The notes under the pieces are model-generated. The model was not told the origin of the DNA. It searched no databases and saw nothing but the letters and a program-made list of their open reading frames with translations. A stretch of 64,000 nucleotides of DNA from the NCBI GenBank assembly GCA_019747895.1, contig JAIEQF010000013.1:67104-131103 (forward strand), read 5' to 3'. A program made the translations under genes and the position numbers. Below, one piece after another: positions 1,178 to 43,597 of the stretch. Numbering within the stretch: position 1 is the first letter of the stretch; each line of letters starts with the position of its first letter. The stretch is from Chthoniobacterales bacterium (GTDB lineage Bacteria > Verrucomicrobiota > Verrucomicrobiia > Chthoniobacterales > UBA6821).

Positions 1178-1212
1178 TTTTTTGCGTTCTTTGCGTTCTT
1201 TTGTGGCTATTC
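1178..1212 (-). repeat. 9-mer REP-like repeat, right member of the pair
   Basis: ttttttgcgttctttgcgttcttttgtggctattc is the reverse complement of 682-716. Confidence 0.85.
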
Positions 1213-2082
1213 CTCTTTTTTTGGAGTCACATGATAACTCGCTGGCCAGCAGATTTGGCGACGGAGGAGCCAATGGACGCCGATCAAGTCAAGAATGCCA
1301 TGGCTCATTCTTTTGAAAATGGTGTAGTTTGATTGACCAAAGCGGCGAGGGCGATGATTTACTGGAAACTGTCCTAAGGTGAGCCCTGCGTTTTCTAACA
1401 TGGCAATCATGTAGCATTGCATTTGATTAAAAGGCATGAGGAATCGGAGATATTCTTTGCGGATGACTTTGAGCGTGCAGCCTGCATCGCGAACGGTATC
1501 ACCAGTAAAAAATTTGCGAACTTTATTGGCAACTTTAGAAGCGGCTTTGACCTGCCAACTATCTTTGCGATTTTTACGATAGCCGCAGACAACATCATAA
1601 TTTTTTGATTCGCGAACTAACATTGGAATATCAGCAGGATCGTTTTGACCATCTCCATCCATCAAGACGCAAAGGTCATGAGATGCTGCAAGTAAGCCGG
1701 CGTAGAGGGCTGCACTTTGGCCGAGATTTTTAGGGAAAGAGATCAAACGTACGTCGCTGAACTTTTTAATCAGTGATTCTGTTGCATCGTGACTCCCGTC
1801 ATTAACGGCAATGATTTCAGCATGAGGGTTGGTGAGGCGTGTTTCTTCCAAAACAGCAACGACGTTGTCTTTTTCGTTGTAGAAAGGAATGATGATCGAA
1901 ATAGACCTATTTGAAAACTCTACTGCTGACGCGCATAGCTGCGTCGCGCCGGTGCTCGAGTTGTCGAGTATTTCCTTATACACTCCGCCTCTGCGCTCCG
2001 TCGCTCCTTGCTCTGCATCGCCAGCAGCGAGTTTTGAAAGAGGTCTAGTGTTGAAAAAGGCTTGGTCGTGATCTTGAGACAT
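1207..2082 (-). CDS. Glycosyltransferase family 2 (polyprenol-phosphate sugar synthase-like) with a 48-aa PE1 insert near the N-terminus
   Basis: IIIPFYNE, VNDGSHD, NLGQSAAL, MDGDGQNDP motifs; insert RPLSKLAAG...VEFSNRS precedes the first beta strand. Confidence 0.88.
   Translation of the reverse strand: MSQDHDQAFFNTRPLSKLAAGDAEQGATERRGGVYKEILDNSSTGATQLCASAVEFSNRSISIIIPFYNEKDNVVAVLEETRLTNPHAEIIAVNDGSHDATESLIKKFSDVRLISFPKNLGQSAALYAGLLAASHDLCVLMDGDGQNDPADIPMLVRESKNYDVVCGYRKNRKDSWQVKAASKVANKVRKFFTGDTVRDAGCTLKVIRKEYLRFLMPFNQMQCYMIAMLENAGLTLGQFPVNHRPRRFGQSNYTIFKRMSHGILDLIGVHWLLRRQICWPASYHVTPKKEE
1902..2047. mobile_element. PE1 palindromic element copy A (146 bp), in frame in the GT2 gene
   Basis: Ends tagacctatttgaaaactc / gagttttgaaagaggtcta are imperfect inverted repeats; core cgtcgcgccggtgctc...tcgagt...atacactc is shared with the other copies. 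Confidence 0.92.
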
Positions 2083-2094: not shown

Positions 2095-2952
2095 TCACAT
2101 AGGAAGCAAGCCGACAAGGCGCATGGGAGCCTCGGTGCCATGAAGAGTCTTGATCGGAAGAGCCAAAATAAAACTTCCAGTTGGTGGCAGGCTGATAGAG
2201 TTGGCCACGTTTTCAACAATATATTTTTCAGATCCTAGAAAAGCCGCATGCACGGGATAGCCGCTCTCAGGCCGATCTGGAGAGAGTGTGTCGATGCCGA
2301 GGCCGACCGCTTTTCGCTGGATCAAGAAGTCGGCTGCTTCTTTGGAAACGGAAGGAAAGCGATAGTTGTTGTGATAGCGCTCTGGCTGATTCCAAAATTG
2401 ATCCCAGCCTGTTCTAATCAGAACAAAACTATTTGGCGCGATCATGCCCTCTTTTTTTTCAAAGAGTGCAAGATCATCGAGGGAGAGGGTGTAGCTTTCA
2501 TGAGCTTGCGCTGAGACATCGATCATCACGCAAGGTGCTATGAGATTGTTGAGATCTAGCTGTTCGACGGTTGCTTTTCCACGGCTGCAATGGGCTGGTG
2601 CATCGATGTGGGTTCCAATGCCGGCATGCATCTTGAGTTGTTGAACGCGAAAAGAAACATCGCTGGTTGTCAGATCGTAATCAAGTTTTACCTCCTGATG
2701 AAATCCACACGTGCCAGTCCATGAGGAGATTTTTTCATCGAGGGTGTGGGTCAGATCGATGATGTGATAAGGGAAAGCAGAGTCTGTCCAAATGCTACTG
2801 CTAGAGCGCAGGACTGCGTCACTCCGATGCTCGCGTCCTCGAGTATGTTCATATACACTGCGGGTCTGTGCTTCTCGTTCCTTGTCCTGCATCCCTAGCA
2901 GCGCATTTTGATCAGACTCGCCACTTACTATAGTAGCTAGATTTTTTTTCAT
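2095..2952 (-). CDS. Cyclase family / kynurenine formamidase-like metal hydrolase with a PE1 insert
   Basis: IIDLTHTL, HAGIGTHIDAPAH, GLGIDTLSPD, EAPMRLV motifs. Confidence 0.88.
   Translation of the reverse strand: MKKNLATIVSGESDQNALLGMQDKEREAQTRSVYEHTRGREHRSDAVLRSSSSIWTDSAFPYHIIDLTHTLDEKISSWTGTCGFHQEVKLDYDLTTSDVSFRVQQLKMHAGIGTHIDAPAHCSRGKATVEQLDLNNLIAPCVMIDVSAQAHESYTLSLDDLALFEKKEGMIAPNSFVLIRTGWDQFWNQPERYHNNYRFPSVSKEAADFLIQRKAVGLGIDTLSPDRPESGYPVHAAFLGSEKYIVENVANSISLPPTGSFILALPIKTLHGTEAPMRLVGLLPM
2780..2919. mobile_element. PE1 copy B (~140 bp), in frame in the cyclase gene, read in a third frame
   Basis: Ends gagtctgtccaaatgc / gcattttgatcagactc; core gcgtcactccgatgctcgcgtcctcgagt...atacact. 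Confidence 0.85.
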
Positions 2953-8727: not shown

Positions 8728-8747
8728 AGGTTGTAAGAAAAATTTTT

Positions 8748-8784: not shown

Positions 8785-10329
8785 ATGTCTGATTCTTCTC
8801 GAGTTTCCTTTTTTAAAAAAAAATCTGCACTTCCTGTTTTTGCACTACTCATCATTGCGGTAACTCTTTTCCGCTTTTGGTATGCCACGCAGCTTGAGTT
8901 GATCGGCGATGAGGCATATTACTGGTATTGCTCGCGGCATCTCGACTGGAGTTTTTTTGATAAGGGTCCTGGTGCTGCGGTGACGATTTTTTTTGGAACG
9001 CATCTTTTTGGAGACACCGTCTTTGGGGTTCGCTTTTTTGCCGTGCTGCTTTCGGCAGCCACTGGTATAGGCCTCTTTTTTCTTGCACGCATGCTTTTTT
9101 CACAACGTGTTGCTTGTTGGACCTTGCTTGTGGCGCTCTTCATGCCGCTCTACGCGGTGGGGAGCATTCTCATGACGATTGATCCGCTCAGTATTTTCTT
9201 TTGGACGATGGCGGCCATTACTTTTTGGAAAGCAACAAAAAGTGATGGAGTTTTATTTTGGATTATCACTGGAGCTTTTGTCGGTCTTGGAATGTTGGCC
9301 AAATATACAAACTTAGTTGAGTTGCTCTGCTTTGCTCTTTTTTGCCTTTGGAGTTCAGCGCAGCGACGTCAATTCAAACGGCCTCATTTCTACGTGATGT
9401 TAGTCACAGTGCTCTGTTTTTCTTTTCCTATGATCATTTGGAATTATGAACATCACGGCATTGGAATTGTTCATCTTCTTCACCGAGGTGATCTCGATCA
9501 CGCCTGGAGTATCAAACCCGTTGAGATCCTCACATTTCTTGGGGCGCAAGCCGGGGTCATTTCACCATTCTTTTTTCTTGGGGTCATGATTTCGGTTTTT
9601 TGGCCTCAATATGATACGCTTCATGCAGAGGCGACGCGTTATTTGCGTTCTCTTTTTATTCCTCTGTTTGTTTTTTATTCCTGCCTCAGTTTGAATAAAG
9701 CTGCGGAGCCGAATTGGACTGCTCCTTGCTATGTTGCAGGAATGGTCTTGCTTGCTGGTAATTGGCAGGCACTCGCGCGCCGTTGGCCATGGGCAAAGAA
9801 ATGGGTTGTGACTGCATTTGTGGTTGCTGCACTTGAGACCGTCCTGTTGCACAATACTTTTTGGCTGCATCTTCCTTTGCCTCAGTCTTGGAGCCAGAGT
9901 AAAAATCCGATCGTTCAAAAAATCAGTGAGGCCTATCGCAATCTTGGAGTTGTTGATCCTCTTGATCGAACGAGAGGAGCAACTTCCATTGCGCAACATG
10001 CTTTTGAGCTTTCTCAAAAATATGGAACCTCATTTTTTATTTCCGACAATTATCAAACAGCGAGTCTTCTAAGCTTTTATCTGCCAGGCCACCCCGATAC
10101 GTACGAGGCTGATTGGGGGCGGATCAAAGATCAGTTTTCGATTTGGCCTGGATATCACAAGTGTTATCCCATTGGAAGCAATGCTATCCTTGTGTACGAA
10201 TGGAGGTATCCACCAAAAGAAATGTGGTACGATTTTGCTCGGATGCCGCTTATTGACGAAAGCTATTCAACAATAGGAAAGAGACCACTCAAAAAGTATT
10301 ACTACTCTCTTTGCGAGAAATTACAGTGA
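8785..10329 (+). CDS. ArnT/PMT-like GT39 (GT-C) membrane glycosyltransferase
   Basis: DEAYYW, FDKGPG, MTIDP, LAKYT, IIWN motifs; many TM segments. Confidence 0.88.
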   Translation: MSDSSRVSFFKKKSALPVFALLIIAVTLFRFWYATQLELIGDEAYYWYCSRHLDWSFFDKGPGAAVTIFFGTHLFGDTVFGVRFFAVLLSAATGIGLFFLARMLFSQRVACWTLLVALFMPLYAVGSILMTIDPLSIFFWTMAAITFWKATKSDGVLFWIITGAFVGLGMLAKYTNLVELLCFALFCLWSSAQRRQFKRPHFYVMLVTVLCFSFPMIIWNYEHHGIGIVHLLHRGDLDHAWSIKPVEILTFLGAQAGVISPFFFLGVMISVFWPQYDTLHAEATRYLRSLFIPLFVFYSCLSLNKAAEPNWTAPCYVAGMVLLAGNWQALARRWPWAKKWVVTAFVVAALETVLLHNTFWLHLPLPQSWSQSKNPIVQKISEAYRNLGVVDPLDRTRGATSIAQHAFELSQKYGTSFFISDNYQTASLLSFYLPGHPDTYEADWGRIKDQFSIWPGYHKCYPIGSNAILVYEWRYPPKEMWYDFARMPLIDESYSTIGKRPLKKYYYSLCEKLQ

Positions 10330-11349
10330 GTAATTCCAAGGCCACCAAGAAGATTTTTTTGGAGGAGCTTGTGTAGGGTTTGAATAAATGCTCTTGACCA
10401 CAGTTCCCCAGCTGTTCGCAACGTAATTATCAACACCATATTGGTCCCAGATTGCTGTGCTGAAGCTGTTTTGAGCGGCAAAGCTAATCCACGTATTAAG
10501 ACTGCCATCGTTTGGCGAGGTGGTGGGATCTGTCGGATCAACACCGGCACTGATGCGTGCTGGAGTGAATCCATGTTGTTGAGCGAGCCATGTGTTCCAC
10601 GATGTCATGAATCCTTCATTTTGGCTAAGAGGGCAGTAGTCCCAGTAGGTCATCACATAGACGCGATCGATGGCGCACCAATTTTGACTCGTAACAGCAG
10701 TAGCCAAGAATGATGTGTTGCAGGCGTGCCAAGGCCCACTAGCATCACATCCACCAAAGACGCAGCAGCTGGTTGCTAGATCAGGAGCAAGATCTTTAAA
10801 TTTTCCTGCCATAGTCCCAGCAAAAGAGGCAGGAGTTGTGTCATCCATTTCATAGTCGAAGTCGGCTCCGTCAGCTCCTGTTGTGCGGCAGAGGTCGACA
10901 AGGGCTTGGGCAAAAGAATCAACATTGTCTGCATTCAGAACGTTCCAAGAATTTCCAAAAGTTGTTCCAGCTTGTCCTCCGATAGAGAGTTTAACGCTGC
11001 AGCCAGCAGCCTTGCACTGCTGAACAAAATCAGTGAGTGCTGCCACATCGGGAAAGGCGCCTGTGCCTGCTGGCTTGCCTGGTGTGTCGAGGGAGTAACC
11101 ATTGATTGTTGCCGCTCCGTTGACAACAGCAAGCTGTCCAACAAAAACATTGATTGTATTCACTCCCTGCGGAAGCGCACTGATATAAGCTGCGGTGTCC
11201 AAGTTGCCGGTCCAGTCTTCTACCCAGGTGCTATTCTCATATCCAAGGCCGGCTTGAAAGGGGTTCAATAAGTTTTCATGGCGAGCATAAGTTGTGGCCA
11301 GTCCGAGTATGAAGACGGCAATGAACAGAAGGCTTAAGTTTTTTTTCAT
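10321..11349 (-). CDS. Secreted GH18 chitinase-like glycoside hydrolase
   Basis: Signal peptide; VKLSIGG and DGADFDYE (DxDxE) catalytic motif. Confidence 0.82.
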   Translation of the reverse strand: MKKNLSLLFIAVFILGLATTYARHENLLNPFQAGLGYENSTWVEDWTGNLDTAAYISALPQGVNTINVFVGQLAVVNGAATINGYSLDTPGKPAGTGAFPDVAALTDFVQQCKAAGCSVKLSIGGQAGTTFGNSWNVLNADNVDSFAQALVDLCRTTGADGADFDYEMDDTTPASFAGTMAGKFKDLAPDLATSCCVFGGCDASGPWHACNTSFLATAVTSQNWCAIDRVYVMTYWDYCPLSQNEGFMTSWNTWLAQQHGFTPARISAGVDPTDPTTSPNDGSLNTWISFAAQNSFSTAIWDQYGVDNYVANSWGTVVKSIYSNPTQAPPKKSSWWPWNYSL

Positions 11350-11464
11350 AGAAACAAAGGTTGGTTTTTGATCTATAAAGTGACAATAAAAAGCTAGCTG
11401 ACGTCAATAAAAAAGAGGGGAGAGGTTTTTGACGATCTTGAAATCGATGGTGCATTCCGATCGC

Positions 11465-16874: not shown

Positions 16875-18368
16875 ATGTTTTCCCGTCTTTCCGATCAACT
16901 TCAACAAACTTTTAAAAATCTCCGAGGCCAAGGACGTATCACCGAGGCCAATATTTCTGAAGCGCTCCGCGAAGTCCGCCTTGCCTTGCTTGACGCCGAT
17001 GTTCATTTTCAAGTTGCCAAGGATTTTATTGCGAGAGTCAAAGAAAAAGCCTTAGGAGAGACGGTTCTAAAAAGCGTTGCTCCAGGGCAGCAGATCATCA
17101 AAATTTTTCAAGATGAGTTAACGCAATTACTCGGCGGAGATGCCGCTCCTCTTAATTTAAACAAGCCAGCGCGCATTTTAATGGTCGGACTGAATGGTGC
17201 AGGAAAAACAACTTCTTCTGCCAAGTTAGCAAAATGGTTAAAAGCACAAGGGCAACATCCGATGCTCGTAGCGCTTGATTTGGTCAGGCCAGCAGCTATT
17301 GAGCAGCTTGTGACGTTAGGAAAACAAATCGAGGTTCCTGTTTTTGCGCCAGTAGACTTCTTCCGAAACTCTACTTCTGACGCGAATTGCGGCGTCGCTC
17401 CGGTGCTCGCGTCATCGAGTATTAATTATACACTCAGCCGCTGTGCGCCGGAGGCTCCTGGCACTTCGTCGCCAGAAGCGAGTTTTGAAAAAAGTCTAGT
17501 GCCTGGTTCTACTAATGTTTTAGCGGTGGCTCGTGAAGCTCTTGCTTGGTGTGAGCAGCAACATGGCAATGTGACTATTTTTGATACAGCGGGACGTCGA
17601 GAAATTGATGAGGCGCTTGTGAATGAATTGAGTCAATTAAAAGAGTTGTTCCAACCACAGGAGATTTTATTGGTTTGTGACGGAGCTACCGGACAACAGG
17701 CAGTGAGTGTCGCGGAACGATTTCACGCAGCACTCGGGCTAACGGGGCTCATTCTTACTAAATTAGATGGTGATGCTCGTGGTGGCGCTGCTCTTTCTTT
17801 GCGTTCAGTGACTGGGAGGCCGATTAAATTTGTGGGTGTCGGAGAGAAGCTTGATCAATGGGATCTGTTTCATCCTGATCGCCTCGCGGGACGTATTCTT
17901 GGAATGGGAGATATTGTTAGTTTTGTCGAAAAAGCAGCAGAGGCTGTTGAGATGGATGAGATGATGCAATTGGAGAAAAAATTAAAAACATCTTCCTTGG
18001 ATCTGAATGATTTTTTAGCTCAGTTGAAAATGATTCGACGGATGGGGCCCTTAGAAAATCTTGTTGGGATGTTGCCTGGGGGAGCGAAACTTCCTCCCAA
18101 TGTCACGAATGGAAAAGAACTCACCAGGATAGAAGCCATCATTTTTTCAATGACTCTCGAGGAACGAAAACGCCCGGAGATCCTTAATGCACGCCGTCGC
18201 CATCGGATTGCGCAGGGGAGTGGTACCACGGTAACGGAAGTCAATAGCCTCCTTCTTCGCTTTCAGCAACTCAAGAAGATGACAAAAAACATGGGGAATA
18301 TGAAAAAAATGCTGGCCCAATTCGGGAAAAGCGGATTAAATATGCCCAACCGTTCTTGGAGAGCATAA
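16875..18368 (+). CDS. ffh: Signal recognition particle protein Ffh with a 48-aa PE1 insert in the GTPase domain
   Basis: GLNGAGKTT, DTAGR, TKLDGDARGG, RILGMGD and M-domain motifs. Confidence 0.96.
   Translation: MFSRLSDQLQQTFKNLRGQGRITEANISEALREVRLALLDADVHFQVAKDFIARVKEKALGETVLKSVAPGQQIIKIFQDELTQLLGGDAAPLNLNKPARILMVGLNGAGKTTSSAKLAKWLKAQGQHPMLVALDLVRPAAIEQLVTLGKQIEVPVFAPVDFFRNSTSDANCGVAPVLASSSINYTLSRCAPEAPGTSSPEASFEKSLVPGSTNVLAVAREALAWCEQQHGNVTIFDTAGRREIDEALVNELSQLKELFQPQEILLVCDGATGQQAVSVAERFHAALGLTGLILTKLDGDARGGAALSLRSVTGRPIKFVGVGEKLDQWDLFHPDRLAGRILGMGDIVSFVEKAAEAVEMDEMMQLEKKLKTSSLDLNDFLAQLKMIRRMGPLENLVGMLPGGAKLPPNVTNGKELTRIEAIIFSMTLEERKRPEILNARRRHRIAQGSGTTVTEVNSLLLRFQQLKKMTKNMGNMKKMLAQFGKSGLNMPNRSWRA
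17353..17498. mobile_element. PE1 copy C (146 bp), in frame in ffh
   Basis: Ends tagacttcttccgaaactc / gagttttgaaaaaagtcta, TA at both ends; deleting 144 bp restores VPVFAPV-VPGSTNVLAVAREAL. Confidence 0.95.
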
Positions 18369-19058: not shown

Positions 19059-19256
19059 ATGATGATGACTGAACAACACCTCTCTGCTACTCGAGTAAAA
19101 GTGGGACAGCCTTGCGAAGATGATTCTATCGATGCGGCTGACTATCAAAGAAAATTTGTTGCAGCGGTCGAGGAAGGATTAGCTGAGCTTGATCGCGGAG
19201 AGTTTGTTACTTTTGAAGAAATCAAGAAAGAGTTCTCTTCATGGGTTACCGAATAA
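19059..19256 (+). CDS. Antitoxin partner of a RelE/ParE toxin
   Basis: AVEEGLAELDRGEFVTFEE; overlaps the toxin start; paralogue at 26019. Confidence 0.72.
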   Translation: MMMTEQHLSATRVKVGQPCEDDSIDAADYQRKFVAAVEEGLAELDRGEFVTFEEIKKEFSSWVTE

Positions 19257-19537
19257 TTTTTTCTCCTAGAGCTCAACGTGATCTCAGAAATATTAAACGT
19301 TATATTTCTCGCGACTCTCCTCTGATAGCGGAACGCTTCTGTCAAAAGCTTGTAATAAAAACAGAGATGCTTGGAGTTTATCCAGAAATAGGACGAAAGG
19401 TTCCTGATTTTGATAATCGCACATTGCGAGAAATTATTATTGGAAATTATCGAGTGATTTATAGGGTTGATCTTTTGGCTAAGCAAATTGAAATTGTTCG
19501 TTATTGGAATGCAGCTCGAGGAACACCTGAATTATGA
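19241..19537 (+). CDS. RelE/ParE-family toxin
   Basis: YRIIFSPRAQRDLRNI..YI..DSP, GRKVP, REIIIGNYRVIY motifs. Confidence 0.9.
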   Translation: MGYRIIFSPRAQRDLRNIKRYISRDSPLIAERFCQKLVIKTEMLGVYPEIGRKVPDFDNRTLREIIIGNYRVIYRVDLLAKQIEIVRYWNAARGTPEL

Positions 19538-22200: not shown

Positions 22201-22968
22201 ATGAAATGTGTCATTTTAGCAGGTGGCCTTGGAACCCGCATTAGCGAAGAAACGGTGCTCAAGCCAAAACCAATGGTAGAAATCGGAGGGAAGCCCCTTC
22301 TTTGGCATGTGATGAAAATTTATTCCGCACATGGCATTAACGACTTCATTATCTGTGCTGGCTACAAGGGATATTTGATCAAAGAATATTTTGCTAACTA
22401 TTTTCTGCACATGTCAGATGTTACTTTTGACATCAAAGAAAATAGTATGGAGGTTCATGAGCGTTATGCTGAGCCATGGAAAGTGACCGTTGTGGATACG
22501 GGAGAGGAGACGATGACTGGAGGGCGTTTAAAAAAAGTAGCTCGTTATCTTGGAGCCGAGACGTTTTGTATGACCTATGGTGACGGAGTGGGAGATGTTG
22601 CTATTCCAAAGGTTTTAGAAGCACATCATTGCAGTCAGCGCAAAGCCACCATCACTGCAGTGCAGCCACCAGGGCGCTTCGGAGCGCTTCATCTTGAAAA
22701 TGATGCCGTCGCTCATTTTATTGAAAAGCCAGAGGGTGATGGCGCTTGGATTAATGGTGGTTTTTTTGTTTTAGAGCCAGAGGTGCTTTCCTACATCGAG
22801 CATGATCAGATCATCTGGGAACGAGAACCCTTGCAGCGCCTTGCTCAGGAAAAAGAATTGTCGGCTTATCAACATCATGGTTTTTGGCAGCCAATGGACA
22901 CCCTTCGTGACAAGCAGCTGCTTGAAGAGTTGTGGCATAAGGGGCAGGCTCCGTGGAAGATTTGGTAA
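22201..22968 (+). CDS. rfbF: Glucose-1-phosphate cytidylyltransferase
   Basis: [43 protein letters not shown]. Confidence 0.96.
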
Positions 22969-23111
22969 ACCTGCCTTGTAAGTTCTACTGAGAGAGCGAA
23001 GAGCTGCGTTACTCCGGTGCTCGTCGCTTCACGTATTAGATATACGCTCAGCGCCTGTGCTCCGAGGCGCCTTGCTCTTCATCACTCTCAGCGAACTTCC
23101 AAAGCAGGTTA
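22967..23111. mobile_element. PE1 copy D, intergenic, starting at the rfbF stop codon
   Basis: Ends aacctgccttgtaagttc / gaacttccaaagcaggtt; core ctccggtgctcg...tatacgctcagcgcctgtgc. Confidence 0.88.
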
Positions 23112-26219: not shown

Positions 26220-26503
26220 TTGTCTCTCCCGGAGCAAGGCGTGATCTTAGAGGGATTCAACGTTATATTTCTATTGATTCGCCTCAAGCAGCTCTACGCT
26301 TTGGTCAACGACTTCTGAAAAAACAAGAAATGCTTGGAAGTCATCCTGAAATAGGACGTGTCGTTCTTGAAATAGGTAATCGAGCGGTACGAGAGCTTAT
26401 TGTTGGAAATTATCGATTGATTTATGAAGTCAATTTTTTGAACAAGGAGATTGAAATATTTCGCTACTGGCACGCTGCTCGAGGGATTCCAAAGGTCACT
26501 TGA
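26204..26503 (+). CDS. RelE/ParE-family toxin, paralogue of 19241-19537
   Basis: FRIIVSPGARRDLRGIQRYISIDSP, RELIVGNYRLIY. Confidence 0.9.
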   Translation: MVFRIIVSPGARRDLRGIQRYISIDSPQAALRFGQRLLKKQEMLGSHPEIGRVVLEIGNRAVRELIVGNYRLIYEVNFLNKEIEIFRYWHAARGIPKVT

Positions 26504-26510
26504 TATACTC

Positions 26511-27551
26511 ATGACGAATAAAAAAACCATTGTTCCACCACTTCCTCAGGAAGATCTCGAGCATGTCTTAACACACACGAAGCCGCTCTGGGAGCAGGTG
26601 CGGGGAGGTCGGATTTTTGTGACGGGGGCTACTGGTTTTTTTGGAATTTGGTTATTGGAAACTTTTTTGTATGCCAATGACCAATTGAAATTAGGAGCGG
26701 AGCTTGTGGGACTCAGTCGTAAACCTGCCGCTTTTGCTGCAAAGGCTCCTCACATCGCCAATCATCCAGCGATTAAAATGCATGCTGGTGATGTGCGTGA
26801 TTTTGTTTTTTCTGAAGGGGGTTTTTCACATGTGATTCATGCGGGCACAACTTCCAGTGCGCCCGTGCCGCCCTTGGAAATGCTGGAGACAATTACTCAA
26901 GGAACACGGCACACGCTTGATTTTGCAGTCGCTTGTGAGGCCAAGCGATTTCTTTTTGTCAGCTCTGGTGCCGTTTATGGTGAGGCGCCAAGTAAGGATC
27001 ATCATTTTTCCGAAGAAGATTCTACGGCTCCCGATCCAAAGAATTCTAACTCAGCGTACGGCGAAGGGAAGCGCCTTGCTGAGTTATTGTGTCGACTTTA
27101 TCATGACAACCATCAGCTGGAGACGACGATTGCCCGTTGCTTTGCCTTTGTCGGACCGCATCTGCCACTCGATGCTCATTTTGCCATTGGAAATTTTTTG
27201 CGAGATGCTCTAGAAAAAAAACCGATCATGATCAAGAGCGATGGTCAGTCTCAACGTTCGTACCTCTACGCTGCCGACCTCATGATCTGGCTCTGGACGA
27301 TTCTTTTTAAAGGTGAGCCCTGCCGCCCATACAATGTCGGTTCGGAGCACGCACTCACGATCAAGCAGCTGGCGGAAAAAGTTCATGGCACACTGCAACT
27401 TGAGGAAAAAGTACAGATCGGAACCGGCGGCAAAATTTCGTTCTACATTCCTCAGACAGCACGAGCTCAACAGGAATTAAGATTGCAAGAGTGGGTGACG
27501 ATCGAAGAGAGTGTTCGGAGATATTTTAGTTGGCTTAAGGTGAATTTTTGA
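26511..27551 (+). CDS. NAD-dependent epimerase/dehydratase (extended SDR)
   Basis: TGATGFFG, SSGAVYG, YGEGK, ARCFAFVGP. Confidence 0.88.
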   Translation: MTNKKTIVPPLPQEDLEHVLTHTKPLWEQVRGGRIFVTGATGFFGIWLLETFLYANDQLKLGAELVGLSRKPAAFAAKAPHIANHPAIKMHAGDVRDFVFSEGGFSHVIHAGTTSSAPVPPLEMLETITQGTRHTLDFAVACEAKRFLFVSSGAVYGEAPSKDHHFSEEDSTAPDPKNSNSAYGEGKRLAELLCRLYHDNHQLETTIARCFAFVGPHLPLDAHFAIGNFLRDALEKKPIMIKSDGQSQRSYLYAADLMIWLWTILFKGEPCRPYNVGSEHALTIKQLAEKVHGTLQLEEKVQIGTGGKISFYIPQTARAQQELRLQEWVTIEESVRRYFSWLKVNF

Positions 27552-27589
27552 GAATGATTAACTTTTCCTAAAAATCAAAAATCAAAAAA

Positions 27590-28468
27590 ATGAAACAGGA
27601 GCTTATCATTAATCATCGAGCTGTCGGTAATGGACATCCCGCTTATATTATTGCAGAGATTGGGATCAATCATAACGGAAGTGTTGAAATAGCAAAGAGC
27701 CTCATTTCAATTGCAAAAAATTCTGGATGTGATGCAGTCAAGTTTCAGAAACGCACCGTTGATATTGTTTACACGGCAGAAGAATTAGCTAAGCCTCGTG
27801 AAAATCCGTTTGGTGCTACCAATGGTGATTTGAAGCGTGGCTTGGAATTTGGAGTTGAGCAGTACCGTGAGATCGATGAGTTTTGTAAAGAAATAGAGAT
27901 GACGTGGTTTGTTTCGTGCTGGGATGAACCTTCCGTTGATTTTATAGAACAGTTTAAAATGCCTTGTTATAAAATTGCTTCAGCTTCTCTCACTGATGAT
28001 GCCTTGTTGCGATACACGCGGGCTACTGGAAAACCTATTCTGCTTTCAACGGGCATGAGTACTTATAAAGAAATTGATCATGCTGTAGAAATTTTAGGCA
28101 AGCATGATCTTATCTTGATTCATACCTGCAGCACCTATCCTTCCAAATACAACGAACTAAATCTGCGCGTCATTCCTGAGCTGTATAAACGTTATGGCGT
28201 TCCTGTCGGCTATTCAGGCCATGAGACAGGGATTGCTTCTTCGGTAGCGGCGGTGACTCTTGGAGCTTGTCTTATTGAACGTCATATTACACTCGATCGT
28301 GCTATGTGGGGCTCAGACCAAGCCGCTTCCTTGGCTCCCAGTGGACTTTCCCATTTGGTGCGTGATATTCGACTTGTTGAAGAATCGATGGGCGATGGAG
28401 TCAAGATTGTTCAAGAGAGTGAGATTCCTGTCATGAAGAAACTTCGTCGAGTAGGATGTAAGTCATGA
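27590..28468 (+). CDS. NeuB/SpsE-family keto-deoxy-ulosonic acid synthase (no C-terminal SAF/AFP domain)
   Basis: IAEIGINHNG, DAVKFQ, KIASA, STGMS, GYSGHE, IERHITLDR. Confidence 0.9.
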   Translation: MKQELIINHRAVGNGHPAYIIAEIGINHNGSVEIAKSLISIAKNSGCDAVKFQKRTVDIVYTAEELAKPRENPFGATNGDLKRGLEFGVEQYREIDEFCKEIEMTWFVSCWDEPSVDFIEQFKMPCYKIASASLTDDALLRYTRATGKPILLSTGMSTYKEIDHAVEILGKHDLILIHTCSTYPSKYNELNLRVIPELYKRYGVPVGYSGHETGIASSVAAVTLGACLIERHITLDRAMWGSDQAASLAPSGLSHLVRDIRLVEESMGDGVKIVQESEIPVMKKLRRVGCKS

Positions 28469-29160
28469 TTCCAAATAGACCGCTCTCAAAACTCGCTGAT
28501 GGTGATGAAGCGCAAGGAGGCGACGGCGCACAGCGACTGAGTGTACAAGAGCATACAGCCGGCTGGGAGGCCGCTGGATCAAATGCCGAAGGCAGCCCCA
28601 GAGGGGCGAGCCTCGCGGGAGCGAGCGAGTTGCTCCTCGATGGCGCGAGCGCCGGCGCGACACAGCGCTTCGCATCAGCAGTAGAGTTTGGAAAGCGGTC
28701 TAAAATCAAAGCAATCGTTCTCGATATAGATGGAGTCTTAACTGATGGGACTTTTTGGTGGGATCTTAATGGTGGTGAACAAAAACGTTTTAGTTTTCGT
28801 GATGTGATGGGGATTGTGCGAGCAGGACGAAAGGGAATTTTATTTGCACTCATTTCTGGAGAAGAAAATGTCATGGTCGATCGCCTTGCTGCAAAACTGA
28901 ATATTGATTCTGTTTATCAGGGATGTTCTGACAAAGCCTCAGCTCTTCGCTCTTTTGCAAAAGAAAAAAATCTTTCACTCTCAGAAATTTGTTTTATGGG
29001 AGATGACATCAATGATCTTGACGCGATTGAGATTGCAGGCTATTCCGCAGCTCCTGCAAATGCTCATGAAAGCGTCTTGAGTGCGGTCGATTTTGTTGTA
29101 AGAAAATCGGGAGGCGATGGAGCTGTGAGAGAGTTAATTGATTCTTTAGTTGCGATATGA
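28465..29160 (+). CDS. KdsC-like HAD phosphatase with a 75-aa PE1 insert after residue 4
   Basis: LDIDGVLTDG, ISGE, MGDDINDL, GGDGAVRE; ATGA overlap with the neuB-like stop supports the start. Confidence 0.9.
   Translation: MIPNRPLSKLADGDEAQGGDGAQRLSVQEHTAGWEAAGSNAEGSPRGASLAGASELLLDGASAGATQRFASAVEFGKRSKIKAIVLDIDGVLTDGTFWWDLNGGEQKRFSFRDVMGIVRAGRKGILFALISGEENVMVDRLAAKLNIDSVYQGCSDKASALRSFAKEKNLSLSEICFMGDDINDLDAIEIAGYSAAPANAHESVLSAVDFVVRKSGGDGAVRELIDSLVAI
28476..28702. mobile_element. PE1 copy E, long form (227 bp), in frame
   Basis: Ends tagaccgctctcaaaactc / gagtttggaaagcggtcta; carries an extra ~81-nt central module shared with copy H. Confidence 0.93.
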
Positions 29161-29873
29161 AAAATATCTTGAGCCATAAAAAAGTTTTGATTACTGGAGC
29201 CAATGGCGGCCTCGGAGTTGCTATTGCAAAAGAGCTAGCAACTTTAAAGTGTCATCTTTTTTTGACGGCTCGCAATCGTTCTTCTCTCGAGCAACTAGCA
29301 AGCGATCTTCATGAAATCAGTCCTGAGGTAGAAATATTTTCTGCCGATTTAACAAAAGAAATAGAACTGAAAGAGCTTGAAAAAAAAGTTCGATCAACTT
29401 TTCAATCAATAGACATTCTCATTAATTGTGCCGGAGTTTTTCCGGTAGCCTCTATTTCTGAGTCAACACTTGAAGAGTTTGATGCTTGCTTTGCTCTTAA
29501 TGTGAGAGCGCCATTCTTTTTATCAAAAGCATTTTTGCCTGATATGATGACTCGTCAATGGGGGCGCGTTGTGAATATTGGGTCATCATCTGCTTTCAGT
29601 GGTTTTAAAGACACTTCTATTTATTGTGCCTCGAAACATGCATTGCTGGGCCTCAGCCGGGCGCTCTATCAAGAGATGAGAGATAGCAATGTGAGGGTCA
29701 TCTCTATTAATCCAGGATCGATCAAAACAGAGATGGGAAAGAAAAGTGATGACCAAGAATTTAGTACCTTTCTCAATCCAGAGGATATTGCAAAATACTT
29801 AGCATTTAGTATTGCCATTGATTCTGAATTGATTGCCGAGGAGATTAGACTTAATCGTTTTGTGATTAGGTAA
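29157..29873 (+). CDS. Classical SDR oxidoreductase
   Basis: TGANGGLG, INCAG, YCASK. Confidence 0.9.
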   Translation: MKNILSHKKVLITGANGGLGVAIAKELATLKCHLFLTARNRSSLEQLASDLHEISPEVEIFSADLTKEIELKELEKKVRSTFQSIDILINCAGVFPVASISESTLEEFDACFALNVRAPFFLSKAFLPDMMTRQWGRVVNIGSSSAFSGFKDTSIYCASKHALLGLSRALYQEMRDSNVRVISINPGSIKTEMGKKSDDQEFSTFLNPEDIAKYLAFSIAIDSELIAEEIRLNRFVIR

Positions 29874-29911
29874 AATATTACTCTGCGATCTTGGCTTCAC
29901 TTATTTTCAAT

Positions 29912-31723
29912 ATGAAACTTTCCGATTATGTCATTGATTTTTTAGTTCAGCGGGGAGTTAATCATGTTTTCTTTTTGCCTGGTGGGGCAGCCATGCATCT
30001 CAACGATTCGCTTGGAAAAAGGCGTCAAGAAATTGCCTTTATTCCCATGCTGCATGAACAAGCTGTTTCGATTGCTACAGAGGCCTACGCCAAATCATCT
30101 CAGCAGTTAGGAGTTGCAATGGTCACGAGTGGGCCTGCGGGAACGAATGCTCTTACTGGTGTGGTAGGAGCTTGGCTTGATTCAACAGCATGTATTTTTT
30201 TATCAGGGCAAGTAAAACGAGCAGATCTTAAACAAAATCCCAAACTCCGACAGTTAGGCTCACAAGAAGTCGATATCACGACCATTGTTAGTTCTGTTAC
30301 TAAACACGCTATTACGATTACTGACCCTAAAAGTATACGGTATCATTTAGAAAAAGCTTTTTACCTAGCTCATCATGGAAGACCTGGTCCTGTATGGCTT
30401 GATTTTCCTTTAGACGTGCAAGCACACGAGATTGCTCCAGAGACATTAGAAACATTTGTTCTACCATGTTCGGGAGAAAAGGATCTTCTAATCTTAAAAA
30501 AGAAAGTTCATCAGGTGTTAGAAATGCTTCAAGCTGCGGAGCGACCTATTATTGTCGCAGGAAATGGTATTCGCATTGCCAATGCGATTCCAGAATTTCA
30601 TGAATTAGTCGACCTGGTAGGTGCTCCGGTCCTGACGACATGGCCTGCTATGGATTTGCTCCCTCATGATCATCCTCTCTTTGCTGGCAGGCCCGGTATC
30701 ATTGCGCCTCGAGGAGCTAACTTCACACTTCAGAATAGTGATCTGATGATAGTGATAGGGTCTCGCTTAGATATGTTTTTTACGGGCTATGCTCACCAAA
30801 ATATGGCTCGAGGAGCAAAAAAAGTGATGGTTGATATTGATGAGGAAGAGATCAAGAAAATGCAGACAGAAATACATCTTCCTATCGTTGATGATGCGCG
30901 TTCTTTCATTTTAGAATTTTTAGATCAAATTAAAAAAATGTCCTCTAAGCCTCATGGTCGTTTTGATGCTTGGGTAAAACGAGTGCAGGAATGGAAGAAA
31001 AAATATCCGCTGGTGCAACCAGAGCATCGTCAGGTGAAAGATCGAATAAGTCTTTATTATTTTTCTGAAATTATTTCTCAAGAGCTTCCAGAAGGCGCTC
31101 TGGTTGCGCCTGGAAGTTCCGGAGTTGCTATCGAATTATTTTTACTTAACTTTGCTGTCAAAAAAGGTCAGCGCGTCTTTCATAATCGCGGACTTGGCTC
31201 CATGGGATTTGCATTGCCTTCTGCTATTGGAGCGTGTTTAGCCGCTGGCAACAAAGAAACGATTTGTGTTGATGGCGATGGCGGCTTTCAAATGAATGTC
31301 CAAGAGTTGGCTCTTGTGGCTCAATGGAAGTTGCCCATCAAAATTTTTGTGCTCAACAATGATGGTTATGCCTCGATTCGCACCTCTCAACAAAATTATT
31401 TCAAACAATTAGTCGGAGCAGATAGCAGCAGCGGTCTAGCATTACCCGACTTGCAAAAAATAGCCGCAGCTTATGAAATTCCAGCGGTGCGTTTGGAAAA
31501 TCACGAGAATTTAGCATTGAAGATTCGTTCTGTCTTAGCAACACCAGGACCTGTCATTTGTGAAGTCATGGTGCTTCCTGAAGAAGAGCGAGTGCCCCGT
31601 CTTTCTTCTATGCAGCGTCCTGATGGAAGCATGGTTTCTAAGCCTCTTGAAGATTTGTGGCCGTTCTTGGATCGTCAGGAATTTTTATCTAATATGATAG
31701 TGCCTGCACTGGAGGAGAAGTAA
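29912..31723 (+). CDS. Thiamine-diphosphate-dependent enzyme (acetolactate synthase-like / YerE-like)
   Basis: HEQA, TSGPAGTN, GSMGFALP, DGDGGFQMN...NNDGY ThDP motif. Confidence 0.9.
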   Translation: MKLSDYVIDFLVQRGVNHVFFLPGGAAMHLNDSLGKRRQEIAFIPMLHEQAVSIATEAYAKSSQQLGVAMVTSGPAGTNALTGVVGAWLDSTACIFLSGQVKRADLKQNPKLRQLGSQEVDITTIVSSVTKHAITITDPKSIRYHLEKAFYLAHHGRPGPVWLDFPLDVQAHEIAPETLETFVLPCSGEKDLLILKKKVHQVLEMLQAAERPIIVAGNGIRIANAIPEFHELVDLVGAPVLTTWPAMDLLPHDHPLFAGRPGIIAPRGANFTLQNSDLMIVIGSRLDMFFTGYAHQNMARGAKKVMVDIDEEEIKKMQTEIHLPIVDDARSFILEFLDQIKKMSSKPHGRFDAWVKRVQEWKKKYPLVQPEHRQVKDRISLYYFSEIISQELPEGALVAPGSSGVAIELFLLNFAVKKGQRVFHNRGLGSMGFALPSAIGACLAAGNKETICVDGDGGFQMNVQELALVAQWKLPIKIFVLNNDGYASIRTSQQNYFKQLVGADSSSGLALPDLQKIAAAYEIPAVRLENHENLALKIRSVLATPGPVICEVMVLPEEERVPRLSSMQRPDGSMVSKPLEDLWPFLDRQEFLSNMIVPALEEK

Positions 31724-32559
31724 TGTTGCTTGGTATCATGCAAGGAAGGCTTCTTCCACCAGTAGAAAATCGGATCCAATCTTTTCCAAAAGATCGATGG
31801 GCGGAGGAATTTTCTTTAGCAGCTTTATTAGGGATCCAGACGATTGAATGGATTTATGAAGATTATGGCTCCAAAGAAAATCCTATAGCAACGGATGTTG
31901 GAATTATGCGCCTCAAGGAACTTTCTTCTCAGTACGGAATAAAAGTTCTTTCTCTTTGTGCCGACTATTTTATGGATTATCCGCTCTTGCGTTGCAGTGT
32001 CATCCAGCAACGAGAACGTATTGCCAAATTAGAGTGGCTCCTCGAGAGAGCTCAACAGGCCGCTATCGCTTCCGTTGTTCTGCCTTTTGTTGATCATTCC
32101 AACATCAAAAATGAAGAGGAAATTAAAGAGACCATCTCCTTGCTTCAAGAAGTATTGCCTTTTGCTGAGCGCTATCAGGTAGAGCTTCATTTAGAAACAG
32201 ACTTGGAGCCGCACCTTTTTTCGTCGTTGCTTCATCGCCTTCCTCATCCTCTTTTAAAAGTCAACTATGACTCTGGTAACAGTGCCTCTTTAGGATATTC
32301 CATATCAGAAGAATTCAAAGCTTATGGAGAGCGTATTGGGAGTGTTCATATTAAAGATCGTCTGCGCGGAGGAGGCACAGTTCCATTAGGTCAGGGAGAT
32401 GTTTCTTTTGCTGAGCTTGCAGCCGCTTTGCAACGCATCGATTATCAGCGTCCTCTCATTTTACAAATTGCTCGTGGAGTTTCTGGAAGCGAAGTTGATT
32501 GGGTAAGAGAAAATATAAAAACAGTAAAAACAATTTTCAAAAAAACAGATCATTCATGA
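31723..32559 (+). CDS. Sugar-phosphate isomerase/epimerase (AP-endonuclease-2 TIM barrel)
   Basis: GIMQGRL, LHLETD, NYDSGNS, VHIKDR. Confidence 0.85.
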   Translation: MLLGIMQGRLLPPVENRIQSFPKDRWAEEFSLAALLGIQTIEWIYEDYGSKENPIATDVGIMRLKELSSQYGIKVLSLCADYFMDYPLLRCSVIQQRERIAKLEWLLERAQQAAIASVVLPFVDHSNIKNEEEIKETISLLQEVLPFAERYQVELHLETDLEPHLFSSLLHRLPHPLLKVNYDSGNSASLGYSISEEFKAYGERIGSVHIKDRLRGGGTVPLGQGDVSFAELAAALQRIDYQRPLILQIARGVSGSEVDWVRENIKTVKTIFKKTDHS

Positions 32560-33383
32560 ACCCTCTTTCTTTATTTAGTATAAAAAATAAGATTGCTGTT
32601 ATTACTGGTGGCGCTGGTCTTCTTGGGCGTGAACATGCGCATGCCATAGCGCTTGCTGGTGGAATCCCAGTTATTTTCGATGTGCTCGCTGCTGCTCCTA
32701 TCAAAGTAGCAAAAGCATTAACACAGGAGTGGGGAACTTCTGTTTATGGCTATGAAGTTGATATTACTAACATAGAAGCGATCAAGGAAGTTCAACGGAA
32801 GTTGAGCTCTGAGTTAGGACGTATTGATATTTTAATTAACAATGCTGCTAACAATCCTAAGATGGATGGCGATTCCAAGTCTAACGCGTCGCGATTTGAA
32901 ACATTCTCTTTAGAGGCATGGAATCAAGATTTGGCTGTTGGATTAACAGGTGCTTTTTTATGTTGTCAGGTTTTTGGCGCTGAAATGGCCCATCAAGGTT
33001 CTGGAGTGATTGTTAATATTGCTTCCGATTTAAGTCTAATTTCACCCGATCAACGACTCTATCGAAAGCCCGATCTTCCTGATCAAATGCAACCAGTAAA
33101 GCCAGTGACTTATTCTGTGGTGAAGAGTGGTATCATTGGGCTGACTCGTTATTTGGCAACCTATTGGGCTGATCGCGGTGTTCGTGTGAATGCGCTTTCG
33201 CCAGGCGGTGTTTTTACAGGACAAGATGCAGCCTTCGTCCAACGTCTGACTTCCTTAATTCCATTGGGACGTATGGCTACTCCTACGGAATATCAGGCTG
33301 CCATCATTTTTCTTTGTTCAGAGGCATCGGCATATATGACAGGAAATAATTTAGTGATGGATGGAGGAAGGACATGTTGGTGA
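32556..33383 (+). CDS. SDR oxidoreductase of nonulosonate-type sugar clusters
   Basis: TGGAGLLG, NNAANNP, PVTYSVVKSG, RVNALSPGG. Confidence 0.88.
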   Translation: MNPLSLFSIKNKIAVITGGAGLLGREHAHAIALAGGIPVIFDVLAAAPIKVAKALTQEWGTSVYGYEVDITNIEAIKEVQRKLSSELGRIDILINNAANNPKMDGDSKSNASRFETFSLEAWNQDLAVGLTGAFLCCQVFGAEMAHQGSGVIVNIASDLSLISPDQRLYRKPDLPDQMQPVKPVTYSVVKSGIIGLTRYLATYWADRGVRVNALSPGGVFTGQDAAFVQRLTSLIPLGRMATPTEYQAAIIFLCSEASAYMTGNNLVMDGGRTCW

Positions 33384-33403
33384 TTTTTTAATGAATTCGA
33401 TTT

Positions 33404-34315
33404 TTGATAATAATGAAACACCGTGCAAAGCAGCATGTTTATCTTTTAGGAGCGAGTGGCCGTTTAGGCAACGTGCTCCTGGAGGCTTGGAGTCATCATC
33501 CAGAAATTGAATCCATCATTCCTTTAGGAAGAAAAGAAATTGATTTTACAAATCCTTCCGTGGCTCAAAAAAAATTTTCTTCTTACGAGCTCCATGAGAA
33601 CGATCTTGTGATCAATTGTGTTGCTTTAACGGATGTTGATTATTGCGAACGAGAGTCGTTAGAAGCTACGACCATCAATGCAACCACGCCGGCTCTTTTA
33701 GCAGAAGTTTGTGCCAAGCGACGAGCTCGTTTTCTTCAAGTGAGTACGGATTATGTTTTTGATGGAACATTAGACCAACTTTATCGAGAAACAGATGAAC
33801 CAGCACCTTTAAACCAGTATGGCAGTAGTAAGCTTGCGGGAGAAAAAGGTGTGATGGCATCATCACCAGATCATCTGATTGCCCGCATTTCATGGGTCTT
33901 TGGGCCAGGGTGTCCTAGTCTTGTTGATCAAATAATTCAGGAAGCGATGACTTCGAAAGAAGTTAGTTCTGCTGCTGATAGGATTGCCTCTCCTTCTTTT
34001 ACTCGTGATTTAGTAGAGTGGTTTAAATTTTTTCTCAATCCATCTCTCGAAGGTGGCATCTATCATCTTTGCAATACGGGAGTTTGTTCTTGGCATGAAT
34101 ATGGTACGTATGTTTTAAAAAGAGCCGCGCATTATGGATTACCTGTTTTAACAACAGAAATTACTCCAGTGAATTTATATTCTATGAAGCAGTTTGTGAC
34201 ACGCCGTCCATTAAGGACTCCTCTTGATACTAGCAAGTTTTGCGAGCGGAGCGGTCTTCCTCTTCGCCCATGGCAAGAGGCAGTAGAGGAATATTTATTA
34301 AAATATAAATTATAA
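33404..34315 (+). CDS. dTDP-4-dehydrorhamnose reductase-like (RmlD family)
   Basis: GASGRLG, STDYVFDG, YGSSKLAGE. Confidence 0.85.
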   Translation: MIIMKHRAKQHVYLLGASGRLGNVLLEAWSHHPEIESIIPLGRKEIDFTNPSVAQKKFSSYELHENDLVINCVALTDVDYCERESLEATTINATTPALLAEVCAKRRARFLQVSTDYVFDGTLDQLYRETDEPAPLNQYGSSKLAGEKGVMASSPDHLIARISWVFGPGCPSLVDQIIQEAMTSKEVSSAADRIASPSFTRDLVEWFKFFLNPSLEGGIYHLCNTGVCSWHEYGTYVLKRAAHYGLPVLTTEITPVNLYSMKQFVTRRPLRTPLDTSKFCERSGLPLRPWQEAVEEYLLKYKL

Positions 34316-34383
34316 CTTATTTGAAAAAGGAAACTTTTTTTCAGAATAAACAAATAGAGTCAACGCGACAAAAGGAAACTTTT

Positions 34384-35361: not shown

Positions 35362-35369
35362 TTATTATC

Positions 35370-36305: not shown

Positions 36306-36315
36306 TTAATCCATT

Positions 36316-38706: not shown

Positions 38707-38848
38707 TCGGACTATTGTGACTTATTCTTTTGCTCCCTAGCTTCGTTGTCAGAGCTTACGTTATGCTTGCATAGCGCCTCACTCTTCTGACTTGCTAGAA
38801 ACCAAAACTCCTGCGTCCTATAGTCTCATTATTTAATGGAAGTGGTAT
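38687..38848. mobile_element. PE2 copy 2, between two convergent genes
   Basis: Perfect 21-bp terminal inverted repeat ataccacttccattaaataat; same internal motifs as copy 1. Confidence 0.85.
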
Positions 38849-39837: not shown

Positions 39838-39935
39838 GATTGATGCGCAGCCTACAATAGGGTTCTTTTATTGAAAATAAAAATTTGGTTTTTAAGGGAA
39901 CAGTGTTTACTTTTAGAGCATCATTCTTATCCATC

Positions 39936-40907: not shown

Positions 40908-40973
40908 GTCTGTGTATGAAAGTTCTTGATAAAGCCTCAGCGACGTTTAAATTCTTTCTCCTCTTGTTTCATT

Positions 40974-43354: not shown

Positions 43355-43389
43355 AAAAAAGAATGAGTCACAAAGAATATTTAGAAAAA

Positions 43390-43590
43390 AGAATAGCCAC
43401 AAAAGAACGCAAAGAACGCAAAGAAAGAAAATTGAGCTGATAGCATATTCTTTAGTGTCGCTTGCAATCTACTTTTGAATGCAGGAAAAGTAAGCGAGGT
43501 AGTATTATTTTTTGCGTTCTTTGTGTTCTTTTGTGGCTATTCTCTTCTTTTCCTTAAGTTACTTTATGGCTATGCTCTTCGCGGTTAATT
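43390..43590. repeat. Inverted 9-mer REP-like pair between sufB and sufD
   Basis: gaatagccacaaaagaacgcaaagaacgcaaagaa versus ttttgcgttctttgtgttcttttgtggctattc. Confidence 0.85.
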
Positions 43591-43597
43591 TTTTGAT

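Follow-up and report, generated by a model that had tools for sequence, protein, structure and literature searches.

PE1, a palindromic repeat lying in frame within ffh and other genes of freshwater Verrucomicrobia

The ffh gene in a 64,000-nucleotide stretch of DNA from a Chthoniobacterales bacterium (the whole stretch is called here the window) raises the question of how the essential signal recognition particle protein Ffh came to carry 48 additional residues inside its GTPase domain, and whether such a gene can still be a working one. A preliminary description, made from the sequence of the window, had placed there a 48-aa insert derived from a repeat named PE1, and this was borne out by its coordinates, by structural-database alignments that fall into two blocks and by 120 homologues lacking the segment. 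The ffh stretch is one copy of PE1, an interspersed palindromic repeat, and we consider it very probable that it represents a selfish hairpin insertion which is translated and tolerated, and which resembles in its behaviour the Rickettsia palindromic elements (RPEs).

In the list of open reading frames (ORFs), ffh appears as a single open frame of 497 codons. Its product matched the Ffh sequences of the PDB with E values down to 3e-136, and the alignments were split in two, covering query residues 1-159/164 and then those from 216/221 onward, the gap being the insert. The protein reads KQIEVPVFAPV, then the insert DFFRNSTSDANCGVAPVLASSSINYTLSRCAPEAPGTSSPEASFEKSL and then the host sequence VPGSTNVLAVAREAL; the insert codons occupy positions 17355..17498 and specify residues D161-L208, which include two cysteines (C172 and C190), as had been noticed before. 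This segment was absent from all of the 120 best Ffh homologues, of 440-469 aa, in a search of 5.8e9 proteins, and two hits were exceptions in appearance only: a 530-aa protein, extended at its N-terminus, and a shortened call of the gene of the window itself. Motif II lies 16 residues upstream of the insert and, besides the columns of motifs I to III (Table 1), those of TKLD were likewise invariant among Ffh homologues. Cutting 144 nt from ffh gives a 449-aa protein with the junction FAPV-VPGSTNV, in line with the earlier claim that removing 144 bp restores a normal Ffh, but the net gain relative to the nearest empty allele (APAAGSTDV, in the relative L067) is 147 nt, that is 49 codons and not 48. 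A tryptic peptide predicted from the insert-bearing Ffh is NSTSDANCGVAPVLASSSINYTLSR. The public call for this gene (P0009) has only 368 aa, because it starts at the internal M130 (MLVALDL...), without the N domain and the P-loop. Since the call of an insert-free relative (P0184, 325 aa) is equally shortened and has the same internal start, these calls reflect a systematic start-codon miscall in the clade and not an effect of the insert.

The ffh stretch is not a chance sequence, because eight other places in the window matched it (nhmmer, E 4.5e-22 to 1e-7), its termini are 22-nt inverted repeats and it folds strongly, at -61.2 kcal/mol (z = -5.4 against shuffles). Besides the nine copies detected by nhmmer in the window (Table 1), at least 36 further ones were found in loci of metagenome-assembled genomes (MAGs); about 45 copies were examined overall, with lengths of 144-146 nt, or 225 nt in a long form, and PE1 encoded no transposase. 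The identity of the ffh copy to its counterparts in the window did not exceed 80%; with a copy from a different genome (L025) it was 92.5%. When a 19-nt core pattern was scanned over 185,579 species represented by one genome each, a set outside which the genome of the window lies, matches on many contigs were obtained only in a few Verrucomicrobia MAGs (LacPavin_0419_WC53_MAG_45_28, K_DeepCast_35m_m1_007 and two uncultured Chthoniobacter MAGs). Elsewhere there were only single chance matches, in GC-rich genomes, and the whole element was found only in Verrucomicrobia. Copy numbers varied strongly between the MAG lineages concerned, some having many copies and others only fragments or none, and the closest Ffh relatives of the window were freshwater Chthoniobacterales/Verrucomicrobiota. 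With a profile of the PE1 peptide, a full HMMER scan gave only 60 matches among 1.84e9 representative proteins, and a word-indexed search of the 5.8e9 proteins, whose index misses short inserts, gave four tiny hypothetical ORFs. There were no Rfam matches for the window at the gathering threshold or for the element at E <= 1, and no Pfam matches for either translated PE1 frame.

RNAalifold and pair counts were based on an alignment (A3) of 29 full-length copies, in which an imperfect terminal helix of 28 pairs surrounds the central core. The proportion of paired cells was 93.5%, as compared with 79.6% in shuffled alignments and 36-43% when the partners were slid, double-sided compensatory changes were seen in 21 of the 28 pairs, and the covariation score of 0.383 (against 0.130) was reached by none of 500 shuffles. 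The outer 13 nt or so varied by subfamily (TAGACC..., AGAACCTGCC..., CCTAGTAC..., AAAACTGC...), yet they were complementary inside each copy, and they were followed inwards by the conserved subterminal motifs AAWTTCTACTG ... CAGCGAATTT. By a hand tally of the pair table, G-U and A-C mismatches in the stem numbered about 16 and 28, respectively, a strand asymmetry that leaves selection on RNA and selection on DNA both possible. The core was equally conserved in intergenic and genic copies, so that its conservation serves the element at the DNA level and not the peptide. A long subfamily carried an extra GC-rich segment of about 81 nt (27 codons), whose place in the central loop was identical in its four copies (the two of the window, L026 7622-7848 and L037 1948-2174), and this segment lay in the reading frame of the GH31 gene of the window and of Sua5 in L037.

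TA dinucleotides, found at 17353-54 and 17497-98, had been described as flanking both ends of the insert. Both are present, but they do not constitute a target-site duplication: the terminal pair of the stem (A3 columns 2/162) covaries, being AU in 17 copies, CG in five, GC in four and UA in two, and the ends of copy L060b, CA...TG, are inverted and not direct. The TA...TA ends are, therefore, a covarying base pair of the stem. The longest string common to both flanks averaged 3.79 nt, against 3.84 nt in mismatched controls (p = 0.59), and no duplication was apparent between filled and empty ffh sites, so that duplication of the target was ruled out by the flank comparison and the covarying terminal pair. 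Insertion into pre-existing palindromes was discarded as well, the complementarity of the flanks being 2.24 against 2.04 in controls, and no fixed target motif was found in the flanks of PE1.

When in-gene status was scored as position within ORFs of more than 200 aa, about 22 of the approximately 45 copies were in genes. Nineteen copies were clearly internal; 14 of them were on the same strand in phase 2, where the element reads ..NST..CVAPVLASSSI.YTLSRCAP.., three were on the opposite strand in phase 0, reading RPLSKLA.GDE.QG..GAQRLSV..LDDASTGAT.., and one partial copy was in another phase. These two main phases are the two stop-free frames of the family consensus, and the lengths of the in-gene copies (144/147 and 225 nt) keep the frame, which argues that the inserts would be translated rather than spliced out. 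In the window, the alignment of MutL to the E. coli MutL of the PDB stopped at query residue 115 and restarted at 171/182, and the insertion in GH31 was a clean one of 76 aa with respect to 5djw_A (query 296/373 corresponding to chain 266/264). The copies in the GT2, cyclase and HAD genes, which fall within the first 80 codons or so, may lie upstream of the true start, that in GT2 within the 5'-untranslated region. Hosts in the MAG loci were SecA, MetRS, DnaX, HolA, NuoG, Sua5, a phytoene/squalene synthase and a GT1 glycosyltransferase, and those in the scan of 1.84e9 proteins included prephenate dehydrogenase, type I dehydroquinase, RsmE, AddB-like nucleases and a subtilase. All of these proteins are conserved and mutually unrelated.

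The history of the ffh copy was followed in the DNA of three close relatives. One of them (L067, 92% nucleotide identity) had the empty site GCACCAGCGGCTGGT (APAAG). The other two (L065 and L066, independent assemblies with 90% identity) read GCGCCAGTAAGCTTTTCCGGAAACTCTCCTTCTGA followed by TGTG, with the same left junction as the window; they kept 27-28 nt that matched the left end of PE1 at about 77% and then continued with host sequence, a state that corresponds to an in-frame deletion of 135 nt comprising the remaining element and five host codons. Because this remnant lies at the identical junction, a PE1 copy did once sit at the same nucleotide in a second lineage and decayed later, as has been described for RPEs. 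The dN/dS of ffh between the window and its relatives was 0.05-0.11, indicating that the gene is under strong purifying selection and is not a pseudogene, and its synteny with rpsP was conserved. No other filled allele was found in the collection of 5.8e9 proteins, and the 18 matches of the host-element junction GCNCCAGTAGACTTCTTCC in JGI metagenomes were all chance ones, none of them with PE1 or ffh.

Synonymous distances (dS) of both ffh and the neighbouring SASA gene supported the tree ((window, L067-empty), L065-remnant), the distance of ffh from the window being 0.31 for L067 and 0.47 for L065. Precise excision in L067, re-insertion at the same site and transfer of the allele by recombination are each possible; long inverted repeats promote precise excision. 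The distance to L065 was 0.28 upstream of the insert (16875..17352) and 0.61 downstream (17499..18368), a jump that hints at a nearby recombination breakpoint, and that to L067 was 0.30 and 0.33, respectively. In a further relative (L068, MAG CAYOAN010000001.1 of an uncultured Chthoniobacter), a weak fragment of PE1 (9820-9914, E 2.6e-4) was seen immediately upstream of an insert-free ffh (10001..11365) and a clearer one at 3571-3637. At the same locus, but not in the window, the DEAD helicase and SASA genes are separated by an inserted PDDEXK_2 (Rpn/transposase-like) gene.

With respect to the protein, AlphaFold2 (60 homologues) gave a pLDDT of 25-30 for residues 164-212 and of more than 90 in the surrounding G domain, predicting a disordered insert in an intact G-domain fold, for Ffh modelled alone. 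The NG part superposed on Ffh NG crystal structures with target-normalised TM scores of 0.90-0.93 (Foldseek). The insert is preceded by a short strand, VPVF (about residues 155-158), and followed by the helix 215-228 that leads to DTAGR, its place being directly after the insertion-box element bearing motif II. Residues of this motif have described roles in Ffh (PMC1904258, PMC2568955), and the insertion-box domain gates the active site (PMC1904258). The site is a variable one, since among the 296 NG positions of 59 relatives residue 160 ranked second and residue 158 ninth in variability. The proposal of the preliminary description that this is a surface loop which tolerates the insert is supported by the pLDDT values, the NG superposition, the variability of the site and the purifying selection, and from these we infer tolerance. 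From its topology the loop would be at the sheet edge, on the face that binds the nucleotide, so that an effect on complex formation is possible.

Taken together, these results are best explained if PE1 is a non-coding selfish repeat of about 145 nt, with an imperfect 28-bp terminal stem around a core of about 70 nt, a copy of which would have landed in a poorly conserved loop of ffh, after the last insertion-box strand and before the DTAGR helix. In the orientation and phase that it has there, the element contains no stop codon and its length preserves the frame, so the ribosome would read through it and produce an Ffh with about 48 extra, probably disordered, residues. As the catalytic motifs are untouched, this Ffh would still work, with its binding to FtsY perhaps undisturbed, and selection would leave the insert in place. 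The element would spread by means of its terminal hairpin rather than of fixed end sequences and without duplicating the target, a dependence suggested by the compensatory evolution between subfamilies, the variable ends and the lack of a target-site duplication. Copies in genes would survive only in stop-free frames at tolerant sites and would later decay by deletion.

Several points weigh against this explanation. Apart from the remnant in L065/L066, a single assembly documents the filled state of ffh, and the presence of the insert in the mRNA and the protein, like the activity of this Ffh, is deduced from sequence. The measures of age conflict, because the 92.5% identity to L025 looks young against a remnant in L065 at a dS of 0.47, with the nearer L067 being empty. 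The strand ahead of the loop belongs to the insertion-box domain, which carries the catalytic motif II. A second ffh elsewhere in the genome is possible. Finally, a definition of in-gene copies by open frames would score gene-disrupting copies as intergenic.

Other explanations have to be weighed against a translated and tolerated hairpin insertion. The TA...TA that bounds the ffh copy and several others (1902, 48449, L005, L017, L026 and L058), the inverted termini TAGAC...GTCTA and the size and copy number of PE1 would suit a classical TA-duplicating MITE (a miniature inverted-repeat transposable element), either Correia/NEMIS-like or derived from Tc1/mariner-IS630, that was cut and pasted by a transposase acting on conserved terminal inverted repeats (TIRs). 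We regard this origin as unlikely, since the outer nucleotides differ across subfamilies and are complementary only within copies, the terminal dinucleotide belongs to a covarying pair, the flanks are no more alike than those of the controls, and no transposase domain was found among the Pfam-scanned ORFs of the window. PE1 has, thus, the complementary termini of a MITE, though their sequence varies between subfamilies, and lacks the target-site duplication. That the insert has been co-opted, with an mRNA hairpin (as an RNase III site or a translational pause) or the 48-residue loop and its two Cys regulating the level of Ffh, the timing of its GTPase or the binding of partners, appears very unlikely. 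The stem of the ffh copy is unusually well kept (-61 kcal/mol, z = -5.4), this copy looks less diverged than the neutral expectation if it is as old as the split between the window and L065, and the site adjoins the domain that gates the active site (PMC1904258). The same features are, however, equally conserved in intergenic copies and therefore serve the element and not Ffh; moreover, the closest relatives are without the insert, one lineage deleted PE1 in frame, the insert is predicted to be disordered, and the hosts of PE1 are unrelated proteins.

There is a very slim chance that the insert lies outside a working gene, either by misassembly or because a decaying ffh is backed by an intact paralogue elsewhere. 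The absence of the filled allele from all other proteins and JGI metagenomes searched and the shortened public call would be expected in this case, but the ffh copy is too different from the other window copies to be a collapsed repeat, both of its junctions are in frame and stop-free, and two independent assemblies of a relative hold the remnant at the same nucleotide. A pseudogene is contradicted by the low dN/dS, the intact motifs and the maintained synteny with rpsP, and the shortened call also occurs in the insert-free P0184. As for the insert-free paralogue that the preliminary description had proposed to look for, no second SRP-type GTPase exists in the 64-kb window, which was the extent of this search. 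We give almost no credence to an intron-like removal after transcription, in which the stem would juxtapose the junctions for cleavage and ligation and an Ffh without the peptide would result. The covarying stem does bring the exact 5' and 3' junctions together, but stop-free frames and frame-preserving lengths would be needless in an element that is spliced out, no ribozyme or intron model of Rfam matched, and we know of no intron-like removal pathway of such a kind in bacteria.

The Rickettsia elements were described in 2000 and were later extended to Wolbachia. RPE-1 to RPE-10 and their Wolbachia counterparts are palindromic repeats of 100-150 bp, many of them in frame in unrelated ORFs; their orthologous sites are filled, empty or decayed, and the enzyme that mobilises them is not known (PMC10969869, PMC3767692). 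PE1 resembles them in being a palindromic, multicopy element of about 100-150 bp without a transposase, in forming a stable hairpin, in having a large share of its copies in frame within unrelated ORFs, housekeeping genes among them, in adding with each of these copies a conserved peptide without destroying the frame, and in its filled, empty and decayed alleles. It differs from them in its host, a free-living freshwater Verrucomicrobium (Chthoniobacterales-like) and not an obligate intracellular alphaproteobacterium, as well as in being GC-richer than the window (53% in the ffh copy vs 44%), in the extensive covariation of the stem between subfamilies and in the nested form of 225 nt. Homology between PE1 and RPE-1 to RPE-10 seems unlikely, because both the pattern search across the 185,579 genomes and a profile search yielded true copies in Verrucomicrobia alone, and the peptide occurred in only 60 of the 1.84e9 proteins.

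Other hairpin repeats are less similar. REP sequences and REPINs, which are mobilised by RAYT/TnpA_REP, are extragenic and consist of units of 20-40 nt, or doublets of about 100 nt, with a conserved end tag of the GTAG/CGTC type. PE1 is like them in forming hairpins, in being non-autonomous, in the compensating changes of its stem and in lacking a classical signature of TIRs and target-site duplication, and a mobility of the REP/REPIN type via a single-stranded hairpin intermediate is plausible. It is unlike them in its variable ends, without an end tag, in the large size of its conserved core and in the intragenic position of half of its copies. In Correia elements the TIRs, of 26 bp, are conserved and TA is duplicated, whereas the ends of PE1 vary and no duplication was detected. 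Correia/NEMIS of Neisseria (about 100-155 bp) and ERIC of enterobacteria (127 bp) share inverted termini, transcription as hairpins and an occasional occurrence inside ORFs (PMC10969869). PE1 is similar to both in size and inverted termini, but intragenic copies that preserve the frame are the rule in PE1 and the exception in Correia/ERIC. Mitochondrial genes of Nematomorpha also hold coding palindromes, which are perfect and gene-specific (PMC6649704); as in PE1, they are long hairpins within coding sequence with both arms in the translated frame, in contrast to the interspersed multicopy nature and the common core of PE1. The same paper, from 2019, counted RPEs among only a few cases of stable hairpins in coding sequence (PMC6649704), and Ogata 2002, which both PMC10969869 and PMC6649704 cite, presents them in its title as unique to Rickettsia. 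We found no report of such elements for Verrucomicrobia or Chthoniobacterales in the open-access literature; PE1 is apparently undescribed in Verrucomicrobia and would represent RPE-like coding palindromes in a new phylum.

An independent family, unrelated in sequence, thus seems to do in free-living freshwater Verrucomicrobia what RPEs do, and it enters core machinery (Ffh, SecA, MutL, DnaX, HolA, MetRS and NuoG). This suggests that palindromic selfish DNA colonises genes in frame as a general route of evolution and not as a quirk of reduced intracellular genomes, and it is this behaviour of the whole family, more than the single insert in ffh, that is worth reporting. The inserts amount to natural "insertion scans", in that they point out which loops of essential proteins are tolerant. 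For annotation they call for caution, because they inflate protein lengths and split profile matches. PE1 also offers a second system for finding the mechanism that mobilises coding palindromes and, if it does move by means of its hairpin, presence/absence genomics could identify the enzyme responsible for moving them. We put forward only tentatively that PE1, together with PE2, a similarly built repeat of the window described below, represents a kind of mobile DNA, dependent on hairpins, that has yet to be described. It is likewise no better than a speculative view that such DNA would lack both fixed ends and target duplication, with its stem selected for mobility and its core acting as a recognition module, and would colonise essential genes of free-living bacteria.

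Table 1. Location of ffh, its motifs and the copies of PE1 in the window (+ and -, strand).
Feature	Position	Strand	Basis or context
ffh, signal recognition particle protein	16875..18368	+	Pfam SRP54_N, SRP54, SRP_SPB; N, G and M domains present
P-loop / motif I, GLNGAGKTT (G105-T113)	17187..17213	+	Intact; columns invariant in a 60-sequence alignment (A2)
Insertion-box motif II, DLVRPAAIEQ (D135, R138, Q144)	17277..17306	+	Intact; invariant in A2
PE1 copy in ffh, 146 nt	17353..17498	+	nhmmer, inverted ends, broken PDB alignment, empty allele
Left arm of 28-bp terminal stem	17354..17390	+	RNAalifold; A3 columns 2-39 pairing with 126-162
Central core, about 70 nt	17391..17460	+	A3; encodes VAPVLASSSI.YTLSRCAP; includes invariant inner hairpin 17403-17409 / 17416-17422
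Right arm of terminal stem	17461..17497	+	RNAalifold, pair counts
Motif III, DTAGR (D237-R241)	17583..17597	+	Intact, downstream of the insert; invariant in A2
PE1 copy	1902..2047	+	Opposite-strand reading; residues about 12-60 of GT2 glycosyltransferase ORF (1207..2082, -), just ahead of the Pfam domain
PE1 copy, degenerate	2777..2921	+	N-terminus of putative cyclase ORF (2095..2952, -)
PE1 copy, intergenic	22967..23111	+	Abuts stop codon of nucleotidyl-transferase gene (22201..22968)
PE1 copy, long (225 nt)	28477..28701	-	5' end of HAD hydrolase ORF (28465..29160, +), opposite-strand frame
PE1 copy, right half decayed	48449..48594	+	Inside unannotated 591-aa ORF (47331..49106, -)
PE1 copy in mutL (49566..51500)	49912..50056	+	In frame between ATPase fold and transducer domain
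PE1 copy, long (225 nt), in GH31 alpha-glucosidase (60519..62939)	61406..61630	+	In frame
PE1 copy, intergenic	63189..63333	+	Stops in every frame

The second family of hairpin repeats in the window, PE2, is about 165-175 nt long and was located at 23146-23306, 38687-38848, 54655-54822 and 55087-55254, with a partial match at 54687-54757. Its copies, two of which were 95.8% identical, all look intergenic and have in common the inner motif TTGACTTGTTCTTTT ... CGTTATC.TTGGATAGCGC ... AAAACTCCTGCG; their terminal stems are long, AT-rich and different between copies, and they fold at -52 to -69 kcal/mol. The architecture is that of PE1, with a variable outer stem and a conserved inside. Short motifs of about 40-60 nt built on AAAGAACGCAAAGAACGCAAAGAA were seen at 674-738, 1167-1222, 43385-43443 and 43508-43551, and also at 14928-14968, 47280-47326, 60363-60471 and 41872-41901. 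Such motifs lie close to the ends of genes in either orientation, some forming inverted pairs (60363-60471), and may be REP-like or associated with terminators or promoters. A further short repeat was present at 158-196, 8738-8779 and 51528-51559.

Among the other loci of the window, two paralogous antitoxin/ParE-toxin modules (19059..19537 and 26145-26484) were 72% identical over 341 nt, and in relatives the first of them is likewise found behind rpsP, where Pfam recognised a ParE_toxin. Downstream of ffh there is a large cluster for sugar-nucleotide and polysaccharide biosynthesis (26451..41720), whose Pfam matches comprise epimerases, NeuB, SDR, a TPP enzyme, RmlD, an FkbM methyltransferase, GT2 and an ABC transporter, and a pair of SUF Fe-S assembly genes is located at 41942..44866.

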